In this document: positions 41,750 to 53,272 of the stretch, in pieces
Position numbering within the stretch: position 1 is the first letter of the stretch
How the letters are laid out: each line of letters begins with the position of its first letter
Source: an uncultured Desulfosarcina sp.
GTDB taxonomy: Bacteria; Desulfobacterota; Desulfobacteria; Desulfobacterales; Desulfosarcinaceae
Reading direction: 5' to 3'
NCBI GenBank assembly: GCA_963674945.2
Contig: CAXXWQ010000003.1
Location: 1,952,001-2,016,000 of the forward strand
Length of the DNA: 64,000 nucleotides
Program-made: the position numbers and the translations under genes
Notes under the pieces: model-generated
What the model was told of the DNA's origin: nothing
The model's input: the letters and a program-made list of their open reading frames with translations, nothing else
The model's database searches: none

Positions 41750-42067
41750 TCAAAACAAAGAGAGTTGGATTTGTCCGGAGGATTGCTTTTTGCCAATACA
41801 TCCTCCTTTGGCGAGTATTATCCTGACCCATCGAACTGTCAATCCATATTTCACGGCGAGTTCGCGGTAATTCTTGCCGTTAAATTCGGAACAGATGGCT
41901 CTGTTGCGCGCGTTTTTTGCGATGCTGCCGATGGTGGGCAGGTTCAGCGGGCTGCCGCCGAACCCTCCTATCAATCGCAACAGAGCCTCCATCCCGATAA
42001 GATCGGCCACATATCGAAGTTCGTCCGGCAGGTCATCGTGTTTTATTTTGTGGCGGTATTCTGTCAT
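41750..42067 (-). CDS. mor: Mor/C family transcription activator
   Basis: 'FGGSPL.LP', 'RNRAI..EFNGKNYRELAVKYGLTVRWVR.IL'. Confidence 0.92.
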   Translation of the reverse strand: MTEYRHKIKHDDLPDELRYVADLIGMEALLRLIGGFGGSPLNLPTIGSIAKNARNRAICSEFNGKNYRELAVKYGLTVRWVRIILAKGGCIGKKQSSGQIQLSLF

Positions 42068-42867: not shown

Positions 42868-43031
42868 GCATTCTCTCCAAAATTAAATTCATTCATACAA
42901 TTCGCGCACCTGATTTTCGCAATAAAGAGGAAACCTTGATCATCAACATCAAAAAATACCTTCCAGTTGTCATATCCGCAAAGCAGGCAAATGAACGGCT
43001 TTACTGTTCGAATATTGATGATCTTTCCCAT
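42864..43031 (-). CDS. Small zinc-ribbon protein (55 aa, not in the ORF track)
   Basis: MGKIINIRTVKPFICLLCGYDNW...IRCANCMNEF; start and stop overlap both neighbours. Confidence 0.65.
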   Translation of the reverse strand: MGKIINIRTVKPFICLLCGYDNWKVFFDVDDQGFLFIAKIRCANCMNEFNFGENA

Positions 43032-43522
43032 CAGGTGTAACTCGGAACGTACACGTTGTACTGTGACACCAACTGCCTATCGTTGCTTGTTATATAGTCC
43101 ATTGTGGTTGAAAGGTTCGCGTGACCAAGCATTCTTTGAACAGTGATCGGGCTGGCACCCCTGAGAATCATGTTTGTCGCAAGGGAATGCCGGAATTTGT
43201 GTGGGTGAACTCGTTTCGTAATGGTTGTTCTTTTTTTTACGGTATTGACCAACAGCCGCAGCGCCCATGGCGAGTATTGCCTGTTTCCATGGAGTGTCGT
43301 GAAGAGATAGCTGTCAGCTTCGCGTGGATACTCTGCAAGATATTGCTCTACGTGTTCATGGATCGGCCGCTGTGTTCCGATTGCGCATGTCATTTTTCGT
43401 ATGATCTTCTCGCGATTGTAGATCGTATTGTGTTTTAATCCATCGCGGATAAGCATCTCCCGGCAAAATGATTTCACCAGATCGACATCTTCAACATCAT
43501 TTTCAACTGCAAGCGTCAGCAT
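43031..43522 (-). CDS. Short tyrosine-recombinase-like protein (internally deleted XerC/D-like)
   Basis: 'VHPHKFRHSLAT...GAS...VQRMLGHANLSTTMDY'; only 163 aa from ATG 43522. Confidence 0.8.
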   Translation of the reverse strand: MLTLAVENDVEDVDLVKSFCREMLIRDGLKHNTIYNREKIIRKMTCAIGTQRPIHEHVEQYLAEYPREADSYLFTTLHGNRQYSPWALRLLVNTVKKRTTITKRVHPHKFRHSLATNMILRGASPITVQRMLGHANLSTTMDYITSNDRQLVSQYNVYVPSYT

Positions 43523-44076
43523 CTTTCTCTCCTGTTTCCTTTCTTTTTCTCCCATTGCCCATGCATTTCTTCAGGTGTAAGTATGCGGCTAAAGCCGTCC
43601 TCAGGAGACCTGTTTTCTGCAAATTCCGTTCGCATCGTTCCATCACGCTCCGCCTGATTCTGGCGAACCTCCCGTGCGCGATCCGCGTCGTCGGCCAGGT
43701 CGTAAGCGATCGATTTCAGGTAGCCGTGAGATTCGACCGGTAGACGCCGAGGCGGGACATTCACCATCCGCTCCATTGCCATCCCCCATAATCCAGCATC
43801 GATGGGCCGGGACGGTTTCCCTTTCCACTCAATTTGCGGTTCTGTAATAAGGGTAGCAACCTCGCCGGCAAGGCGTAACGCCCGGCCCCAGACAAGGCCG
43901 CGATATCCCTTTGATCCGTTATATGGCGGACGGAAAAGAGAAAGATACGGCAAGATGTTCCGCGAAACGCTCGTCGGCATAACGGCAACTGTTTTAAGGC
44001 ACTGCCGCGCATCCGCGTTTCCGGTCCACGCCTCAGCGCTCGCAACAGCTCCACAGGAAGGGCATATCAACTTCAT
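43516..44076 (-). CDS. Conserved-type Mu-like phage early hypothetical protein
   Basis: 'MKLICPSCGA', 'YLSLFRP', 'LP..SHGYL..I'. Confidence 0.75.
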   Translation of the reverse strand: MKLICPSCGAVASAEAWTGNADARQCLKTVAVMPTSVSRNILPYLSLFRPPYNGSKGYRGLVWGRALRLAGEVATLITEPQIEWKGKPSRPIDAGLWGMAMERMVNVPPRRLPVESHGYLKSIAYDLADDADRAREVRQNQAERDGTMRTEFAENRSPEDGFSRILTPEEMHGQWEKKKGNRRERC

Positions 44077-44469: not shown

Positions 44470-44894
44470 TTTTAGATCTCCCCCGATAGATCCCACCCCT
44501 CACGTTTCGCCTGATAGCGAAGGGCGGTGATTATTTTGTACAGCAGGTGATCCGGAACCCATTCGATTCTGTCCGTCTTGCAGATCCTCTTGGCCAGCGC
44601 ATGTGCATAATTCCAGGGTTTTCCGCCAACGGTGAGAAGTGCCTCGATCTTCTTTAGCTGTGCGGCCCTGTTTCCACGGCTCATGTTCTTCGGCCGCCCA
44701 GGATAACCACGCCGACTGCGTCCGTACTTGAAACCGGACTGGCCAAGGTGCGCCAGTACTTTACGCCGTCCTTTTACAGTAAGGGCTCGCGCAAAAATAA
44801 TTTAACATATTATGAGGCTAATAGTCTCATTAACTATCCTATGGTTGTTTGCAACAAATCCGTATAATTGGCTAAATAGCAATATATTGTCCTG

Positions 44895-45722
44895 TTGCTC
44901 ATAATGAGATCATTGGCCTTGACAGAATCGACCTGTAGGGCTAATTGTATCATTATGAATAAGACAAAATACCATCTCCAAGACATAAAGGATTTCTTTG
45001 GTGTTCACAAAATCGCCACTTTTAATCAACTTCAAGAGGCGCTTGGAAATCCGGCTCGAGCAACGCTGTTTCGAAAATTGGCGCAGCTGAAGTATCTGAG
45101 CAGTTATTCGCATCGAGGTAAATTTTATACTCTTTTATGCATTGCGCGATTTTCTAAACTTGGCCTTTGGTCTTGCAAATATGTTTGGTTTTCACGTTTC
45201 GGTAATTTGCTTCAAACAGCCGAGACCCTTGTTGCCCGATCAGAGGCGGGGTACAGCGCCGCCGAACTAAAAGATATTTTGCACGTCAAGACCAAACATG
45301 CGTTGACCCAACTGGTACGCGACAACCGGCTTCAGCGTAAAAAATTCGAGGCTGTCTACATTTATCTGTCTCCTGAAAACGTTGTTGCTCGCAGACAGGA
45401 GAAAGTTCGCAAATCCCGTTTAAAAAAGTCCTTGGCTTCTGTTATCGTAACCAATCCCGACTTGGCCGCAGAAGAGGCCAAGGCCATAATTGTTCTTTTT
45501 TGCAGTATGCTCGATGAACGCCAACGCCGGCTATACGCCGGGCTTGAATCGTTAAAGTTGGGCCACGGCGGTGACGCCTACATCGCATCGCTGCTTGGCA
45601 TGGATCCTCATACCGTAGCACGTGGTCGACAAGAACTGATCAGCGGCGATTTGAGTACCCAAAAAGTTCGGGCAGCAGGAGGCGGGCGCCTTCTGCAAGA
45701 AAAAAAACGCCCGAAATCATAG
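44895..45722 (+). CDS. ISAzo13 ORF A (N-terminal extension plus the HTH part of the transposase)
   Basis: 'LDERQRRLYAGLES.KLGHGG...IA..LG....TVARGR.EL...VR..GGGR'; ends just after an A8 run. Confidence 0.85.
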   Translation: MLIMRSLALTESTCRANCIIMNKTKYHLQDIKDFFGVHKIATFNQLQEALGNPARATLFRKLAQLKYLSSYSHRGKFYTLLCIARFSKLGLWSCKYVWFSRFGNLLQTAETLVARSEAGYSAAELKDILHVKTKHALTQLVRDNRLQRKKFEAVYIYLSPENVVARRQEKVRKSRLKKSLASVIVTNPDLAAEEAKAIIVLFCSMLDERQRRLYAGLESLKLGHGGDAYIASLLGMDPHTVARGRQELISGDLSTQKVRAAGGGRLLQEKKRPKS

Positions 45723-45739
45723 ACGCCATCGCCGTCATC

Positions 45740-46663
45740 ATGGAGCACGAGACCGCTGGTGATCCGGTAAGTGGGTGTAAGTGGACACGCAAGACCACAG
45801 GAAAAATCGCCCAACAATTGAAACGTGCCGGCATCCGGGTATCGGCCAAAACAGTGGGTAGATTGTTAAAGCAAATGAACTATTCCCTACGCTTGAATCT
45901 TAAATGTCTTGAATCCGGGCAGAGTAAACCACCCGATCCCCACCAGCGTGATTTACAGTTTCGCTATCTTCGCAGCCAGATACGCTGCTATAAAGCCGAC
46001 GGAATGCCCGTGATCAGTGTTGATACCAAAAGCCGAGAACTAATAGGACCGTTCCATCAGGCCGGGCGTCGATGGAGCCAAGCACCGATAAAAGTCTTGG
46101 ATCATGATTTCCCCTCTGACGCCAATGGTGTTGCGATCCCATACGGTATCTATGACATTATTCAAAACAAGGGCTTTGTATGTGTTGGCACCAGTCGCGA
46201 TACTTCCGAGTTTGCCGTAGATTCTATCCGTACATGGTGGCAAAAAGTTGGTTCTCGCCACTATCCTGATGCCGATCGTCTGCTCATTCTGGCCGATTGT
46301 GGTGGAAGCAATGGCTACAGAATCCGGCTTTGGAAACAGCAGCTGCAGATCCGTCTTTGCAGCCGCTTCGGCCTGAAGGTCAAAGTATGTCATTATCCAC
46401 CCGGTTCCTCCAAGTGGAATCCCATCGAACACCGTATGTTTTCTTTCATTAGCAACAACTGGGCAGCACAACCCTTGCTTGATTACGAAACTGTGTTGAA
46501 ATTCATTCGTTCGACCAAAACCGCGACAGGGTTGAAAATCCGCGTTTTTCTTAACAACAAGAATTACCGTAAAGGTAAAAAGGTCTCCGACCAACAAATG
46601 CATCAAATAAACTTGAGACGATATACTCAACGGCCAAATTGGAACTATTCGATCTCACCATGA
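45740..46663 (+). CDS. ISAzo13 DDE transposase catalytic part (-1 frame to ORF A)
   Basis: 'TAGDP', 'PVISVDTK', 'DHDF', 'ADCGGSN', 'HYPPGSSKWNPIEHRMFS', 'WNYSI.P'. Confidence 0.93.
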   Translation: MEHETAGDPVSGCKWTRKTTGKIAQQLKRAGIRVSAKTVGRLLKQMNYSLRLNLKCLESGQSKPPDPHQRDLQFRYLRSQIRCYKADGMPVISVDTKSRELIGPFHQAGRRWSQAPIKVLDHDFPSDANGVAIPYGIYDIIQNKGFVCVGTSRDTSEFAVDSIRTWWQKVGSRHYPDADRLLILADCGGSNGYRIRLWKQQLQIRLCSRFGLKVKVCHYPPGSSKWNPIEHRMFSFISNNWAAQPLLDYETVLKFIRSTKTATGLKIRVFLNNKNYRKGKKVSDQQMHQINLRRYTQRPNWNYSISP

Positions 46664-46871
46664 AAATGTGAATTTATTTTTGCGCGAGCCCTAAGGTCCG
46701 CCGCGCTCGACACCCCGGCCACATTCATCAACATATCCCGATAGACGACGTCATCCATGCCCAACTGCTTCTTGGCGATATGGATCTTCGCAAGATCAAT
46801 ATTTCGTTGGTTTTTAATGGTCTGTTTTCTCACCGATCATCTCCTATGAGCTATGAGCTATGAGCTAAATT

Positions 46872-46933
46872 CGGCTGCTCATCAGGCCGCCCGCGCCACC
46901 GGACGACGATCCCGCCAAAAGCGGGATTTCGCA
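46872..46933 (-). ncRNA. Type II hammerhead ribozyme
   Basis: Minus strand: UGC-GAAA-UCCCGC(uuuug)GCGGGA-UC^-GUCGUCC(ggUGGCgc)GGGCGGC-CUGAUGA-GCA-GCCG; complete core, three stems and a possible loop I pseudoknot. Confidence 0.88.
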
Positions 46934-47548
46934 CTACAACGCCGCAAGATCCATTGACACCTGCCGCCACTTATCCTCTGGGAATTTTCGTTCGTAGAAT
47001 CTGATGTAGCTCTTCGATCCGACCACCTGGATGCTGTCGCCGATGGCCTCCATGGCCCTTAACCATTTTTCGTCGTCGATTTCGTACCGCCGCAGGCCGA
47101 TGATTTGCCGGACGTTTAGACGCCCCTCTTTGTCCACCTGGAACGCATCCATAACGATCACCTTGATCTCGTCGCGCCCTTCCTCTGTCCAGTCGGTGAG
47201 ACACTCGTCGATCAGCGCCTTTGCCGCTTTCAAACGCTCATCAAGCGAAATATGTTCGCTGATCGCCACTTGGATTTTCTTTGTCCCGTCATAGGAAATA
47301 AGGCTCACGTTCCCCTTGTTCCCGCCGAGATGAACTCCGTACTTCTCGGCCGACAAATCGATGAACGCGGAAACGTCCCCCATGCTCCTGACTTTAAATT
47401 CCTTCATGTTTTTTTGAAGTGTTTCTGCCGCCGTAAAAAGTTCTCTGACCAGTGAATCGCGCTCCTGGTCGATTTCATCCACCATGCTCTTCGGGACAAG
47501 GCGCCCCTTGGCATCCTCCATAAAGTCGTCTTTGTTCAGCTCCGCCAT
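46934..47548 (-). CDS. DUF3164 family protein
   Basis: 'MEDAKGRLVP', 'GG.KGNVSL.SYDG', 'DERL.AAKALIDECL..W', 'SKSYIRFYER'. Confidence 0.92.
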   Translation of the reverse strand: MAELNKDDFMEDAKGRLVPKSMVDEIDQERDSLVRELFTAAETLQKNMKEFKVRSMGDVSAFIDLSAEKYGVHLGGNKGNVSLISYDGTKKIQVAISEHISLDERLKAAKALIDECLTDWTEEGRDEIKVIVMDAFQVDKEGRLNVRQIIGLRRYEIDDEKWLRAMEAIGDSIQVVGSKSYIRFYERKFPEDKWRQVSMDLAAL

Positions 47549-47589
47549 TGGTTCCTCCTTGATGTAAAGTCGATCCGTAACGCCCCGGC

Positions 47590-47787
47590 TCATGCTGCAC
47601 TCCGATCCAATTGCCGATGAGCCATGCCGTTGGCGTCCATTATCTTTCGCATCCGGATCAGCGTAACGAGCGCCTTTTGCTTGGCTTCACGACTCTTCTC
47701 GTCGATTACCGAGATGTCATGTAGGTCCATATAAATATCGTTCAACCCTTCGTGTATCTGATCGATCTGCGCCTGTTTTTCCATCAT
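47590..47787 (-). CDS. Small hypothetical protein
   Basis: MMEKQAQIDQIHEGLND...; GGAGG RBS. Confidence 0.6.
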   Translation of the reverse strand: MMEKQAQIDQIHEGLNDIYMDLHDISVIDEKSREAKQKALVTLIRMRKIMDANGMAHRQLDRSAA

Positions 47788-48113: not shown

Positions 48114-48439
48114 CGCTCGTCTCCTTCCTCCCTACACTTTTTCCCTAACGGGTTTCCGCACCGTTCGCACCTCATTGGGTACTCCGGCCCAACATCACGC
48201 ACCAACCGATACGCATGGTACGATCCGGCGTGGCCGGAAAGGTTGTCGCTGATTTTAGCCACATATCCATGTTTCAAGAGGCCAAGGACGAATTTTCTCA
48301 CATTATTGGTCTTTGCTCCGGATGTTCTGCAAAGATCTGGTACGGAAAACCGGCGCAGGATGCGCATGCTCTGCCACACCTTCCGCCGCGATGTGTTTTT
48401 TCTAGGCGATGATGCAACCATTCCCTTGATTCCAGCCAT
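48110..48439 (-). CDS. Winged-helix phage early protein
   Basis: 'R.KVWQSMRILRRFS..DL', 'YRLVRD.GP..P'. Confidence 0.75.
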   Translation of the reverse strand: MAGIKGMVASSPRKNTSRRKVWQSMRILRRFSVPDLCRTSGAKTNNVRKFVLGLLKHGYVAKISDNLSGHAGSYHAYRLVRDVGPEYPMRCERCGNPLGKKCREEGDER

Positions 48440-49158
48440 TAACGCCGCCTCCCGAACGTGGGTTGATCAAAGAAAAGCGGACGGTCTCCCCATTCGGCAA
48501 GGGAAACCGACTCCAGCCCATTGATCTTGGCCAGTTGCTCAATCCGCGACAGGCCGGTGGTCATGCGCCCGATGTTGGCTCTGGCCGCCTCGTGCAGCCT
48601 CTCCAGCAGGTCATGTTCCACACCCACCTCGCACACGGTTTCGGCAAGCGTCCGCGCGTCGGCAATGGTGATGCCGCGAAACTCCACCCACTGGGTGACG
48701 CGCCTGGCAAATCGACCGTTGTTTTGCAGCTTCCTGGCCATCTCCTCCATTCCGATGAGCACGACCGGCGACCCGGTGTTGTCGTAGATGTCCCGTAACA
48801 CGTCGATCATGTCGGTCTGGCGAAGTAGATAATCCGCCTCGTCGACGAAGATCGGCCTCGGTCTTTCCATCAAGCAGCGCACCGAAGCGTCCACCATTGG
48901 CGCCCGGAATCGACCTGTCGGCTGGCCCAGTTCAACCATCAGGGCACTGAGCATGCTGGTCACCGTCCAGCAGGCATTGGCCCGAAGGAAGATGCCGTCC
49001 AGCGTGTTGGTGGCGAAGGCGACCGTTGTGCTTTTTCCTTCTCCTGGATGGCCCCATAAAAGCCCCATCCCCTCAACACCCATGGGACGGTCGGTCAGTT
49101 CGCGAACCGCCGCCAGAAACCGGCGGACATTCGCCGTCATTGCCATTTCGTGCTTCAT
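48439..49158 (-). CDS. AAA+ transposition ATPase (MuB-like)
   Basis: Walker A 'GHPGEGKS', Walker B 'IFVDEAD', 'LRDIYD', 'VVLIGM'. Confidence 0.9.
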   Translation of the reverse strand: MKHEMAMTANVRRFLAAVRELTDRPMGVEGMGLLWGHPGEGKSTTVAFATNTLDGIFLRANACWTVTSMLSALMVELGQPTGRFRAPMVDASVRCLMERPRPIFVDEADYLLRQTDMIDVLRDIYDNTGSPVVLIGMEEMARKLQNNGRFARRVTQWVEFRGITIADARTLAETVCEVGVEHDLLERLHEAARANIGRMTTGLSRIEQLAKINGLESVSLAEWGDRPLFFDQPTFGRRR

Positions 49159-49223
49159 GTGGTAACCTCCTTTTTGTCTTACGCTTTACCAAAAGGCCGG
49201 TGTTGCCCGCACCGGCCGACCTT

Positions 49224-49610
49224 TTACCCTGCCAAACGTGGAAATTTTTCACCGAGCCCATAATCTGCGACCATCTTTTTGGCCGATTGGTACAATGTGC
49301 CAAGGTTCACAGCGTGGCGATTGGCCTCGATTTCTAAGTCCCTCCGCTTCCGTTTGATGTTTGTTTTACTGGCCTCTTCCATTATTTCTTGATGTTTTCT
49401 CGCGTGGCCGGATGCCCGGCGCAGACGATGCCGGATAATGGTTTCTACGATAGCCTCCTCCGAAAACTCAATATTGAGGTGTTTTATAAGGTCAACCAGC
49501 ACCTCCTTCGGCAAGTCTTTCATTCCGAGTTTTCGATTGCTCTTTTGGTATTGTTTCTTCATCTTTGCCCTTTTTTTGGCCATCTCTCCCTCTCTTCCCT
49601 CAGTCATCAC
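49224..49610 (-). CDS. Hypothetical basic protein between the transposase and ATPase genes
   Basis: 128-aa ORF whose start overlaps the transposase stop. Confidence 0.6.
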   Translation of the reverse strand: MMTEGREGEMAKKRAKMKKQYQKSNRKLGMKDLPKEVLVDLIKHLNIEFSEEAIVETIIRHRLRRASGHARKHQEIMEEASKTNIKRKRRDLEIEANRHAVNLGTLYQSAKKMVADYGLGEKFPRLAG

Positions 49611-51745
49611 TCGTTACAACTTGCCATTTTCCCTGTTTGCAGAAAGTGCTCATACCGTTTCATCCAAGCCAAATCTGCATCTGGAAGGTATTTTCCATCG
49701 GCCAGGTCCTGGGTGAGATACTCGTATTTTTCCCATTGAGTAGACGGCATCCTGTTTGCCTGCTTGTCCGCCAGCCGGATCACGTCCTTTGCGCGCTCCT
49801 CCTCATCTTCGCTGATGGCGATGGGAGAAGGGCCAAGTTCCTTTCGCCGCATGTCCTCTACCGCCATCGCCGCCTCATCCAACGCGCCGGTGCTGTATTC
49901 TTCGCTTTGTTTTGGATGGTCCACGATGTTTGCAATCTTTGATTCCCTATAGCCGAGGATCTCATCGTGGATAAACCGAGTTTTTGCCTCTCGCGCGACC
50001 TTCTTCAGCTCCCGGCTGCCCTCGCGCATCACCTTCTTTTGGATGTCCTTCGCTTTATCTGCGATCTCTTTTCGGTTATGGCCAGTACGGTCAGGATTGA
50101 CAGCGGTGCATATATACGTCCCATCCTCTCCGAACACGTAAATTGTGCCGTAATCAGTACGGTCCAACAGAACCCTTACGCGTCCTTCGTGCCCGGCCAG
50201 CTCTGGTGTGATAAACCATGCGTTTTCAACCCTGATACCCTTTCTTCGGATATCCCGGAAACCGCCGTCCGACGGCGCAGGTGAAAGAAGAATATCCAAC
50301 GCCCGCTCGTTGCTGATGCGCCGCACTGGTCCGGTCCAATCCCTTGCCACCTGTGCCGGCGTCATGCCGTCGAGTCCGTCATGGGAGTTGTGATGGTAGA
50401 TGGCATCCACCCACCGGTCACAGATTTCCTGGAATTCGTCGGATGAAATTTTGATATCCACCGGATCCGATCCCTGCTTCATCATTCGCTGTGCAAATGT
50501 GCGTCTTGACTCTATGGCTTTTCTGTCCGCAACGCTGTGGCCGATGTAGCCTGGTAACAGTTCGACGATGGAGTGGGAAAAGGTTTTGAATGCACGTTCG
50601 ATATGCGGCTTCTTCTCTGGAGAGAAAGGCGGGCAAAGCACCTGTTCGACTTCAAGGTCTGAAAATATTCGCACCATATGCCGCGACACATAGTCGGCGC
50701 CATTATCGGTCTTTGCTGATTCTGGCACACCCCAGTCAAGCAAGGCACGCCTGGTGAGTGCCGCCACCGATTCCGCCTTTGATGTCGGAGACACCAGCAG
50801 CTTGATCCGCCTTGAATAGACATCGATCACGCCTATTATCGTGTGCCGGCCATCGGTGAGCATCACGTCTCCCGGCGTAGAGTCGTATTCCCATAACTGA
50901 TTCAGTCTGAAGACCTGCTCGGATGCGTCGCCGAAGGCGAACATTTTCCTATTTTTCCACTCATCAGGATTCTTCAGGTATAGGAGGAGACTCTCGTTTT
51001 CATCCTTCCATTTGGAAACGTATCGCCTTATCGCATGCGCGCTCGGTATTTCCTGGCCGTCGAATCTTGCTTTTATGGACATGCGTATCCCTGGGATCGA
51101 TACATGAGGGTGATCGACGATCATTGCCTGGATGAACTTCTGCATGTGCTCAGGCACCGACGTCTTTGACATGCTGACGTAGTTCCTTGCCAGCCCAGCC
51201 GGTCCATTCTCCTTGTACTCAGTCTCCCATCGGTAAAAAGTGGACCAAGAAAGGACGATTTTTCCTTTTCGTTTTTTCATTGCGCTGGTTACGTTGGGTG
51301 GAAATTTTATCGTCCCCGCCTTCACCTCTTTTATAAATAGGAGCGTTCCCTTCTTTTTGGGCAGCTTCGTTGCGGCCAGAAACCCATCACGCGCCTTCAG
51401 GATCTCCTCGTTCGCGTACGCCTCGTCTTTTTGCTCGTCTGTGAGTGCGTTATATGCCGCAAGTTTCGCCTCCACTTCATCCTGTTTTGCGATTTTCGCG
51501 GCCATCGCCTCTGCGTTCACGCCAAGGCCCCGTATGAATCCTGAGGATTCACCTCCGTATAACGTTGAGAATACTGCCGCCCGAACATCGTCCGGCAGTA
51601 GTGACGTCGGAAATAATTTCCTTGGCCCACCTCGAACGCGCTGGCCTACGGTTGGCCATCTCTCGTTTTGGGCTCGTATTCGCACCATCCGAGGCGAAAG
51701 ACCGATACATTCAGAAATTGAATTGACAGTCAGACAATGCTCCAT
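49607..51745 (-). CDS. Mu-like DDE transposase (MuA-like)
   Basis: N-terminal HTH; 'WEYDSTPGD', 'IDVYSRR', 'KTDNGADY', 'KPHIERAF'. Confidence 0.95.
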   Translation of the reverse strand: MEHCLTVNSISECIGLSPRMVRIRAQNERWPTVGQRVRGGPRKLFPTSLLPDDVRAAVFSTLYGGESSGFIRGLGVNAEAMAAKIAKQDEVEAKLAAYNALTDEQKDEAYANEEILKARDGFLAATKLPKKKGTLLFIKEVKAGTIKFPPNVTSAMKKRKGKIVLSWSTFYRWETEYKENGPAGLARNYVSMSKTSVPEHMQKFIQAMIVDHPHVSIPGIRMSIKARFDGQEIPSAHAIRRYVSKWKDENESLLLYLKNPDEWKNRKMFAFGDASEQVFRLNQLWEYDSTPGDVMLTDGRHTIIGVIDVYSRRIKLLVSPTSKAESVAALTRRALLDWGVPESAKTDNGADYVSRHMVRIFSDLEVEQVLCPPFSPEKKPHIERAFKTFSHSIVELLPGYIGHSVADRKAIESRRTFAQRMMKQGSDPVDIKISSDEFQEICDRWVDAIYHHNSHDGLDGMTPAQVARDWTGPVRRISNERALDILLSPAPSDGGFRDIRRKGIRVENAWFITPELAGHEGRVRVLLDRTDYGTIYVFGEDGTYICTAVNPDRTGHNRKEIADKAKDIQKKVMREGSRELKKVAREAKTRFIHDEILGYRESKIANIVDHPKQSEEYSTGALDEAAMAVEDMRRKELGPSPIAISEDEEERAKDVIRLADKQANRMPSTQWEKYEYLTQDLADGKYLPDADLAWMKRYEHFLQTGKMASCNE

Positions 51746-52516: not shown

Positions 52517-52987
52517 TTATTTCGTCATCTCTTCGAGAAACATTTCACGCTTCCTGACTTCCGACCTGGCCTCGCTCAGCTTCTCCTTCCATCTCTGGAT
52601 CTCGGACCGAAGTGCGTCCGGTCCAGGCATGGAAAACATGCCGACTGTGTCGTTTAAAATTTCGATCGGGTCGTTGGATCCGGTTGCCCGGCAGAAGGCT
52701 GGAAGGTACTCGGCTGGGATGCGATAGTTGTCCTTGCTTTCGGCCGTCCACGCATCGATGACGGCCTTGGTGATCTCGACACCCAATAGATGGCTCATCT
52801 CCCCGGCGATCTGGTGCCGGGAAAGGCTACATTCCTTGATCGCCCGATTTAGCGCCCGCCGCAAACGGTCACGGACGTTCATCGTGCCCTCGCTGCCCGC
52901 AGCGGCCCGCTTCTCTTCGGTTAACCGGGTTAGATGGTCGAACAAACTGAGCTGCGCCGTATCTATTTGATTGCGTTTCTTAGGCAT
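52517..52987 (-). CDS. Phage regulatory protein (CII-like)
   Basis: 'LSRHQIAGEMSHLLG..ITK..IDAWTAESK...RIPAEYLPAFC'. Confidence 0.7.
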   Translation of the reverse strand: MPKKRNQIDTAQLSLFDHLTRLTEEKRAAAGSEGTMNVRDRLRRALNRAIKECSLSRHQIAGEMSHLLGVEITKAVIDAWTAESKDNYRIPAEYLPAFCRATGSNDPIEILNDTVGMFSMPGPDALRSEIQRWKEKLSEARSEVRKREMFLEEMTK

Positions 52988-53017: not shown

Positions 53018-53272
53018 TTAATTAGCAGAAGAAGACTTGCGAGGACGACGGCCGTCCCAGTTGTAATAATCAGCGAATGCGACTTTCGGGTCCAATCCGA
53101 TTTCTTTCGAAATGGCACGGAATAAACGGTCGGAGATCAGCTTTTGGTGGATGACACGGGATATGGTCATTTCGGAAACACCGTGCTTTTCCGCAAGAGC
53201 CTTCTGCGTTACCCCTTTCCGCTTGAGCATGTATTGAATATCCATGGCGGTGATTGGCTCAGAAAATGTCAT
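53018..53272 (-). CDS. Ner/Cro-like HTH regulator
   Basis: 'I..MLKRKGVTQKALAEKHGVSEMTISRVI'; first gene of the early operon. Confidence 0.85.
   Translation of the reverse strand: MTFSEPITAMDIQYMLKRKGVTQKALAEKHGVSEMTISRVIHQKLISDRLFRAISKEIGLDPKVAFADYYNWDGRRPRKSSSAN

Follow-up and report, generated by a model that had tools for sequence, protein, structure and literature searches.

Type II hammerhead ribozymes with a pseudoknot of the kind considered here were described in 2011, often with several members in one prophage operon (Perreault et al.; PMC3088659). That report places prophage hammerheads at the flanks of genes and records cleavage in vitro and in E. coli for some of them; the flanked genes are, in its account, not constant, and the processing of long phage transcripts is suggested as a role (PMC3088659). 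In Desulfovibrio vulgaris, three type II hammerheads near phage-like genes were found by cyPhyRNA-seq to cleave in vivo (PMC8782182). With respect to neighbouring genes, hammerhead and twister ribozymes are reported to have their strongest association with genes of Mu-like phages (PMC10085705), and enrichment near such genes has been noted for hammerhead, twister, pistol, hatchet and twister-sister (Roth 2014 and Weinberg 2015, as summarised in PMC10085705). The processing of polycistronic RNA by these ribozymes is recorded as a suggestion and not as an established fact, and the function of bacterial and phage hammerheads is described as still open (PMC6765202).

The hammerhead reported here is an ordinary addition to a known family, found in surroundings that are also known: earlier publications cover the family, the pseudoknot, the prophage context and the link with genes of Mu-like phages. 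The Rfam covariance model RF02276 (Hammerhead_II) matches along its full length (model positions 1-66 of 66) at 46934-46869 of the window, by which we mean the whole stretch of DNA analysed (64,000 nucleotides). The match lies on the minus strand, the same strand as the neighbouring genes, and its 55.1 bits exceed the gathering score of 37 (E 1.2e-8); the lineage model R1 gives 75.8 bits. It is the sole gathering-level Rfam match within the 64-kb window, and a laxer scan of 28000-57000 (E ≤ 1) returned the hammerhead alone, with no second ribozyme of any class in the prophage. The 7.08-Mb genome contains two RF02276 matches, each of 55.1 bits and both within near-identical prophage copies, while none of 14 control genomes has a match. 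The predicted stability of the 66-mer is unremarkable: its thermodynamic z-score is -0.56, not significant compared with shuffled sequences, and the minimum free energy structure (-28.1 kcal/mol) is better by 2.1 kcal/mol than the nested hammerhead fold (-26.0 kcal/mol). Since the folding energy is not distinctive, the case for a ribozyme is built on the covariance model and on covariation in relatives (see below). With these, the locus is almost certainly a type II hammerhead ribozyme and, by analogy with characterised members of the family, it very probably cleaves itself.

The strand order is that of the type II topology: stem II 5' strand, GAAA, stem III hairpin, C17, stem I hairpin, CUGAUGA, stem II 3' strand, all on the minus strand. 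Stem II begins at the base that directly follows the DUF3164 stop codon (TAG, 46936-46934), and the unpaired position 1 of RF02276 is the G of that codon. The 5' strand of stem II (UGC, 46931-46933) pairs with GCA at 46878-46876 to give an open helix of 3 bp (U46933-A46876, G46932-C46877 and C46931-G46878). The GAAA segment at 46927-46930 comprises G12, A13 and A14 (46930-46928) and A15.1, and leads into the stem III hairpin (46909-46927; loop UUUUG), which consists of A15.1-U16.1 and six further pairs, with an optional eighth U.G pair. The stem I hairpin (46886-46907; loop GUGGCG) pairs 46907-46900 with 46893-46886, from G46907-C46886 through G46900-C46893, in 8 bp including two G.U pairs. 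It is followed by C3-A9 (CUGAUGA, 46885-46879) and by the 3' strand of stem II with the pseudoknot tail GCCG at 46875-46872, the two together occupying 46872-46878. By the definition used in PMC3088659 (C3 U4 G5 A6 N7 G8 A9; G12 A13 A14), the core is complete. The A15.1-U16.1 pair is present as A46927-U46909, position H17, which should not be G, is C46908, and the Watson-Crick pairs that flank the core are present in stem I (G46907-C46886, positions 1.1-2.1) and in stem II (G46878-C46931, positions 10.1-11.1). The loop I bases UGGC (46898-46895) can pair with the GCCG tail, forming a pseudoknot of 4 bp with one G.U, which reaches the minimum of four pairs expected for this type between loop I and the bases behind stem II. 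When the chemistry of the family is applied to the RF02276 alignment, the scissile bond is predicted to lie 3' of C17, between C46908 and G46907.

A sequence-only reading of this DNA had proposed a type II hammerhead with a loop I/3'-tail pseudoknot and had named a comparison with Rfam among its checks; the full-length RF02276 match above the gathering score (55.1 bits) and the covariation confirm the proposal. Its placement of the start at the base after the DUF3164 stop, its full core and open 3-bp stem II, and its pairing of loop I UGGC with the 3' GCCG all agree with the pair listing, and the alignment predicts the same cleavage position, 3' of C46908. One detail needs correction: it gave both closed stems 7 bp, which is right for stem III when A15.1-U16.1 is counted, while stem I has 8 bp.

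The ribozyme is located in the early operon of a Mu-like prophage, within a 100-nt gap that separates a DUF3164 gene from gemA. The Pfam assignments that characterize such an operon are all found here in a single orientation: a transposase with rve and Mu-transpos_C domains, a MuB-type ATPase, GemA and Mor. The genes lie on the minus strand and overlap or abut one another. At the upstream end there are two regulators (53018-53272 and 52517-52987), followed by the MuA-like transposase with its two domains (49607-51745), the MuB-like ATPase (48439-49158; AAA_22 domain), small regulator genes, and the DUF3164 family gene (46934-47593; 219 aa; PF11363, E 6e-83; phrog_846, E 2.3e-86, category unknown function). 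Downstream of the ribozyme come gemA, further small genes and mor, the middle-gene activator (41750-42067; PF08765, E 4e-12). A simple promoter and terminator scan of 46834-46933 found no promoter-like or terminator-like site. Elsewhere in the early operon, a terminator-like hairpin at 49195-49217 (minus strand; 8 pairs, 7 of them G-C, followed by UUUUGG) lies just upstream of the MuB-like gene; the number of terminator-like sites in the region is not above that in shuffled sequences. We also note a 174-aa frame at 43031-43555 (minus strand) that contains the C-terminal part only of a tyrosine-recombinase domain (PF00589, profile positions 64-170 of 172), an unusual passenger within a Mu-like early region.

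In the window copy, gemA is split by an IS element of the ISAzo13 type (about 44785-46691, plus strand; DDE transposase, PF07592, E 1.8e-117). The element is 1.9 kb long and is inserted about 140 nt into gemA; its transposase, on the strand opposite to gemA, is in two plus-strand frames (44895-45722 and 45740-46663), and the junctions are flanked by a TAA or TAAGG duplication. The 5' part of gemA (46692-46833, minus strand) has a GTG start at 46833 preceded by GGAG at 46844-46841 and covers positions 1-25 of the GemA profile PF06252, and the 3' part (44472-44784, minus strand) covers positions 55-119 (E 3.5e-7). Five further copies of the element occur elsewhere in the genome. It is absent from the second copy of the prophage, which is found on contig C1 (409362-434175, corresponding to window 28795-56217), is 99.7-99.99% identical over about 25 kb and runs up to the contig end. 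This second copy carries an identical hammerhead (C1:417539-417604) and an intact gemA of 149 aa, and could represent either a genuine second integration or strain variation within the assembly. The sequence-only reading was thus right about the prophage early operon, with MuA, MuB, GemA and Mor identified by Pfam, and in part about a gemA-mor segment downstream: mor is present in the same orientation, and the segment is broken in this copy because the IS element cuts gemA in two. Any separation of messages by the ribozyme is therefore moot for gemA here, while the intact arrangement is kept in the C1 copy. The genome has a third DUF3164 locus (L063, C3:425381-425962; 66% identical), which lacks a hammerhead. 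A short hairpin (GCCGC-UUU-GCGGC) and an AT-rich stretch with few genes lie beyond the stop codon of this third gene; pairwise alignment of the locus with the ribozyme gave scattered matches only, so that a decayed hammerhead could not be established there.

The leader on the 3' side of the ribozyme consists of a seven-base tandem repeat, the GGAG motif and the gemA GTG, in that order. The repeat (GCUCAUA in the RNA strand; 46844-46867, minus strand; period 7, 3.4 copies, 100% matches in TRF) sits between the hammerhead and the gemA ribosome-binding site and is lacking in relatives. Here the ribozyme is 35 nt from the start codon, and 24 of these nucleotides are repeat; it looks like a local 7-nt expansion that has widened the gap from about 14 nt. 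The repeat is complementary to AUGAGC of the ribozyme core, and when the downstream leader is attached, an alternative hairpin using AUGAGCAGC enters the minimum free energy structure (-37.0). The pairing between repeat and core is not beyond chance, as 16% of shuffled leaders pair equally well and there is no trend in 14 relatives. We therefore reject the repeat, which is moreover missing in relatives, as a conserved switch acting against the ribozyme.

Conservation of the fold was analysed in two alignments of relatives. In a MAFFT alignment of 15 sequences, 92.8% of the cells at paired positions can pair, compared with 27.6-43.7% when the partners are slid, and 11 pairs are changed on both sides. 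The R1-fitted alignment of 20 distinct relatives from the same bacterial order, which by its construction leans towards structure, gives 93.1% compared with 26.0-43.4%, with 14 pairs changed on both sides; none of 500 shuffles of this alignment reached its covariation score. Among the 20 relatives, stem I is paired in 96.2% of cells and all 8 of its pairs are changed on both sides, and stem III is paired in 99.2%, with 5 of the 6 modelled pairs changed on both sides. In stem II the third pair (U-A) occurs in 6 of 20 relatives and the other two in 19 and 20. For the pseudoknot the paired share is 91.3% of cells and a single pair is changed on both sides; as judged from these sequences it counts as conserved, but covariation does not prove it. 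The GAAA segment (G12 A13 A14 A15.1) is invariant in all 15 aligned relatives, as are C3, U4, G5, G8 and A9. Since the DUF3164 proteins of hammerhead-bearing prophages are just 31-68% identical and pairing is nevertheless retained, the fold has persisted through the turnover of the stem sequences.

Core position A6 is also invariant in the 20-sequence set apart from one relative, G272, which has G at this position at two loci (L049 and L059; 1423-1489, minus strand). There, hammerheads directly after DUF3164 carry CUGGUGAG, and Rfam still gives them 60.9 bits; G may be a tolerated variant of the core, or these copies may be inactive.

The spacing between hammerhead and upstream stop codon shows a regularity. 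Relative to the stop of an open frame (100 codons or longer), model position 1 falls at -2 to +3 nt in 13 of the 20 distinct hammerheads; a further 3 are 16-35 nt from an upstream stop and 4 have no such stop within 40 nt. On the downstream side, 9 of the 20 ribozymes are followed at 6-19 nt by the next start codon to have a Shine-Dalgarno-like motif.

A search of 100 related genomes with RF02276 gave matches above the cut-off in 6 of them, a sub-threshold match in G066 being left out as a coding-looking stretch. There are 16 matches in total, 10 of which belong to G072. By tblastn in the six genomes, a DUF3164 gene is found no more than 60 nt away for 10 of the 16, seven of them lying downstream of the gene and three upstream; these ten are not all independent, as several contigs of G072 have identical copies. 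The hammerheads of G015a and G052 follow a gene other than DUF3164, and that of G015a directly precedes gemA. In G072, two type II hammerheads that are about 690 nt apart stand on either side of DUF3164 (L032, contig C61, 1501-2255; also L041/L044 on C111 and L043/L045 on C99); an RNA excised between the two would have 5'-OH and 2',3'-cyclic phosphate ends. Several of these G072 ribozymes are also preceded by a conserved 34-nt hairpin (GUCGGGUUAGAGCG...CUCGUAACCCGAC).

The same picture of uneven occurrence emerges from DUF3164 itself. A sample of 300 genomes of the order contains 15 DUF3164 loci in 10 genomes other than the present one; a hammerhead lies no more than 1.5 kb from the gene at 9 of the 15 (5 of the 10 genomes) and is missing at 6. 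Beyond the order sample it is missing at 27 of 28 DUF3164 loci. These loci were collected by protein similarity, and the ribozyme is present at 1 of 8 in genomes (L003, from a Desulfobacterales MAG and the closest, at 64% identity) and at 0 of 20 in IMG/VR. No other ribozyme class was found at hammerhead-less DUF3164 loci in an Rfam search at E ≤ 0.1 covering 12 of the 18 DUF3164 loci from the order survey, all 18 of which had been included in the hammerhead count, nor at the 28 loci elsewhere, where the one hammerhead in L003 was the single find. Because its occurrence across DUF3164 loci is patchy, the ribozyme is a lineage-specific and optional occupant of the gap between DUF3164 and gemA, and, being missing at many of these loci, it is dispensable for this kind of phage. 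Stable hairpins do follow the stop codon in some hammerhead-less loci (L057, -18.4; L061, -20.9; L055, -13.1; L063, -12.3), while no hairpin of note was seen in L048 and L056 and the loci outside the order are mixed. The idea that a plain hairpin replaces the ribozyme where the latter is missing was dropped, as this evidence is too weak.

We propose that the hammerhead cuts the early message after DUF3164, separating two mRNA segments and capping their new ends; the statement as a whole is one that we hold with some confidence, and for the separating and capping role on its own we consider the chances to be about even. A separation of the transposition-gene mRNA from the gemA-mor segment is plausible and agrees with the conserved position at gene boundaries and with published suggestions (PMC3088659, PMC6765202). 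Going by the chemistry of the family, a Mg2+-dependent in-line attack at C46908/G46907 would cut the early messenger RNA in two between DUF3164 and gemA. The upstream product would close with the stem III hairpin followed by U and C, and its terminal 2',3'-cyclic phosphate would lie 2 nt beyond that hairpin and 26 nt beyond the DUF3164 stop; this product would retain the stop codon with enough 3' sequence for normal termination. The downstream product would carry its 5'-OH on G46907, the base with which the stem I hairpin opens, and would continue through the spent core and the leader into gemA. Only the type II permutation, in which stem II is open, would place a closed hairpin at both new ends. 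Such ends would be expected to protect the upstream RNA against 3' exonucleases and the downstream RNA against decay that depends on the 5' end; with both products shielded, separate lifetimes become possible, and the two gene blocks would be free to differ in lifetime and in translation. These consequences for stability assume RNA decay rules of the E. coli type. Counting against activity are the lengths of stem II, which has 3 bp, and of the pseudoknot, which has only 4 bp including one G.U; a construct in PMC3088659 cleaved about 20-fold more slowly once its pseudoknot had been shortened from 6 to 4 bp.

An unlikely alternative is that the active ribozyme serves to lower downstream expression: as an insulator it would restrict read-through to gemA, mor and the late activators, and the 5'-OH RNA would be degraded or poorly translated. 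The anatomy would be the same as for the separation of messages, and the site is just ahead of gemA and Mor, regulators of the next stage. The cleavage products of the glmS ribozyme are removed by cellular RNases (PMC6765202), and in the 9 of 20 relatives with a start codon 6-19 nt past the ribozyme, the fold and ribosome binding may compete. The new 5' end would, however, be buried in an 8-bp hairpin, which is protective in well-studied bacteria, and the hammerheads on both flanks of DUF3164 in G072 fit a general punctuation of the message better than the silencing of one block.

It is also conceivable, if very unlikely, that the cut is gated by translation: a ribosome terminating on DUF3164 would cover stem II, GAAA and half of stem III, and cleavage would take place only once upstream traffic stops. 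The argument from the ribosome footprint is general knowledge. The position of 13 of the 20 hammerheads at -2 to +3 nt from the upstream stop is what such gating would call for, and it holds whatever the upstream gene, which is other than DUF3164 in G015a, in G052 and on contig C121 of G072. Against this, tight packing is usual in phage genomes and could alone explain the spacing, and 7 of the 20 are at least 16 nt from a stop or have none within 40 nt.

We give still less credence to a neutral passenger, a hammerhead that spreads with or within prophages and may cleave with no benefit to the phage. Patchy occurrence would follow naturally (a hammerhead at 9 of the 15 DUF3164 loci in relatives and at 1 of the 28 beyond the order sample), as would the 10 copies in G072 alone and the G at core position 6 at the two loci of G272. 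Yet the core and the pairing have been kept despite complete turnover of the stem sequences, among prophages whose DUF3164 proteins are 31-68% identical, and this points to purifying selection on the fold. A chance match that is no ribozyme at all, for which one could cite a folding energy no better than that of shuffled sequences, can safely be set aside in view of the E value of 1.2e-8, the full-length match, the presence of all core bases, the covariation in 20 relatives and the 14 control genomes with no match.

The preferred account remains a hammerhead that separates and caps the early messages. A bolder generalization combines elements of the above: hammerheads of type II abutting a stop codon would be terminator-free punctuation of Mu-like early operons, leaving a hairpin-capped 3' end behind one gene and a hairpin-capped 5'-OH leader ahead of the next, with cutting gated by upstream translation. 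We regard it as improbable in this full form. If true, it would assign a defined task to bacterial hammerheads and account for the occurrence, in these prophage operons, of the type II permutation, which alone caps both products.

The locus adds no new kind of RNA. What it adds is a comparative set, in which one ribozyme lineage occupies one operon position in Mu-like prophages of one bacterial order, and which includes natural controls in the form of related prophages that lack the ribozyme and of two near-identical copies in one genome. There is in addition a measurable regularity, as the ribozyme starts no more than 3 nt from the upstream stop in 13 of 20 cases. The natural controls and the stop-codon regularity make the idea of mRNA punctuation testable. 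A full-text literature search for 'DUF3164' with 'ribozyme' returned no paper, and the link between DUF3164 and hammerheads may be unstated in the open literature searched; the gene lists and supplements of Roth 2014 and Weinberg 2015, which fall outside that search, may hold it.

Among known systems, the glmS ribozyme needs a metabolite cofactor, sits in a 5' UTR and destabilises its own mRNA. It resembles the present case as a bacterial self-cleaving RNA within an mRNA, the 5'-OH product of which alters the fate of the message (PMC6765202), and differs in that no ligand pocket is expected in the hammerhead here. Among published gene associations of bacterial ribozymes, those with genes of Mu-like phages are the strongest (PMC10085705), and this is also the present setting. 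The hammerheads of D. vulgaris are likewise of type II and lie near hypothetical and phage-like genes, two of them close together (PMC8782182). Both of their cleavage ends have been captured in vivo and cleavage has been obtained in vitro, which makes them the best experimental stand-in for the present copy, although they belong to another organism and to other loci (PMC8782182).

A close likeness is to the hammerheads of RF02276 as described in PMC3088659. They share with the present copy the capped stems I and III, the open and short stem II, the same core and a pseudoknot formed right after stem II; they too lie between genes of prophage operons, and the same role in transcript processing has been proposed for them (PMC3088659). 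Some members of that set cleave in vitro and in E. coli, whereas the present copy is known from its sequence. The flanking genes are inconstant in that account, in contrast to the copy described here and its lineage, which are tied to one position, after DUF3164 and before gemA, within one bacterial order.
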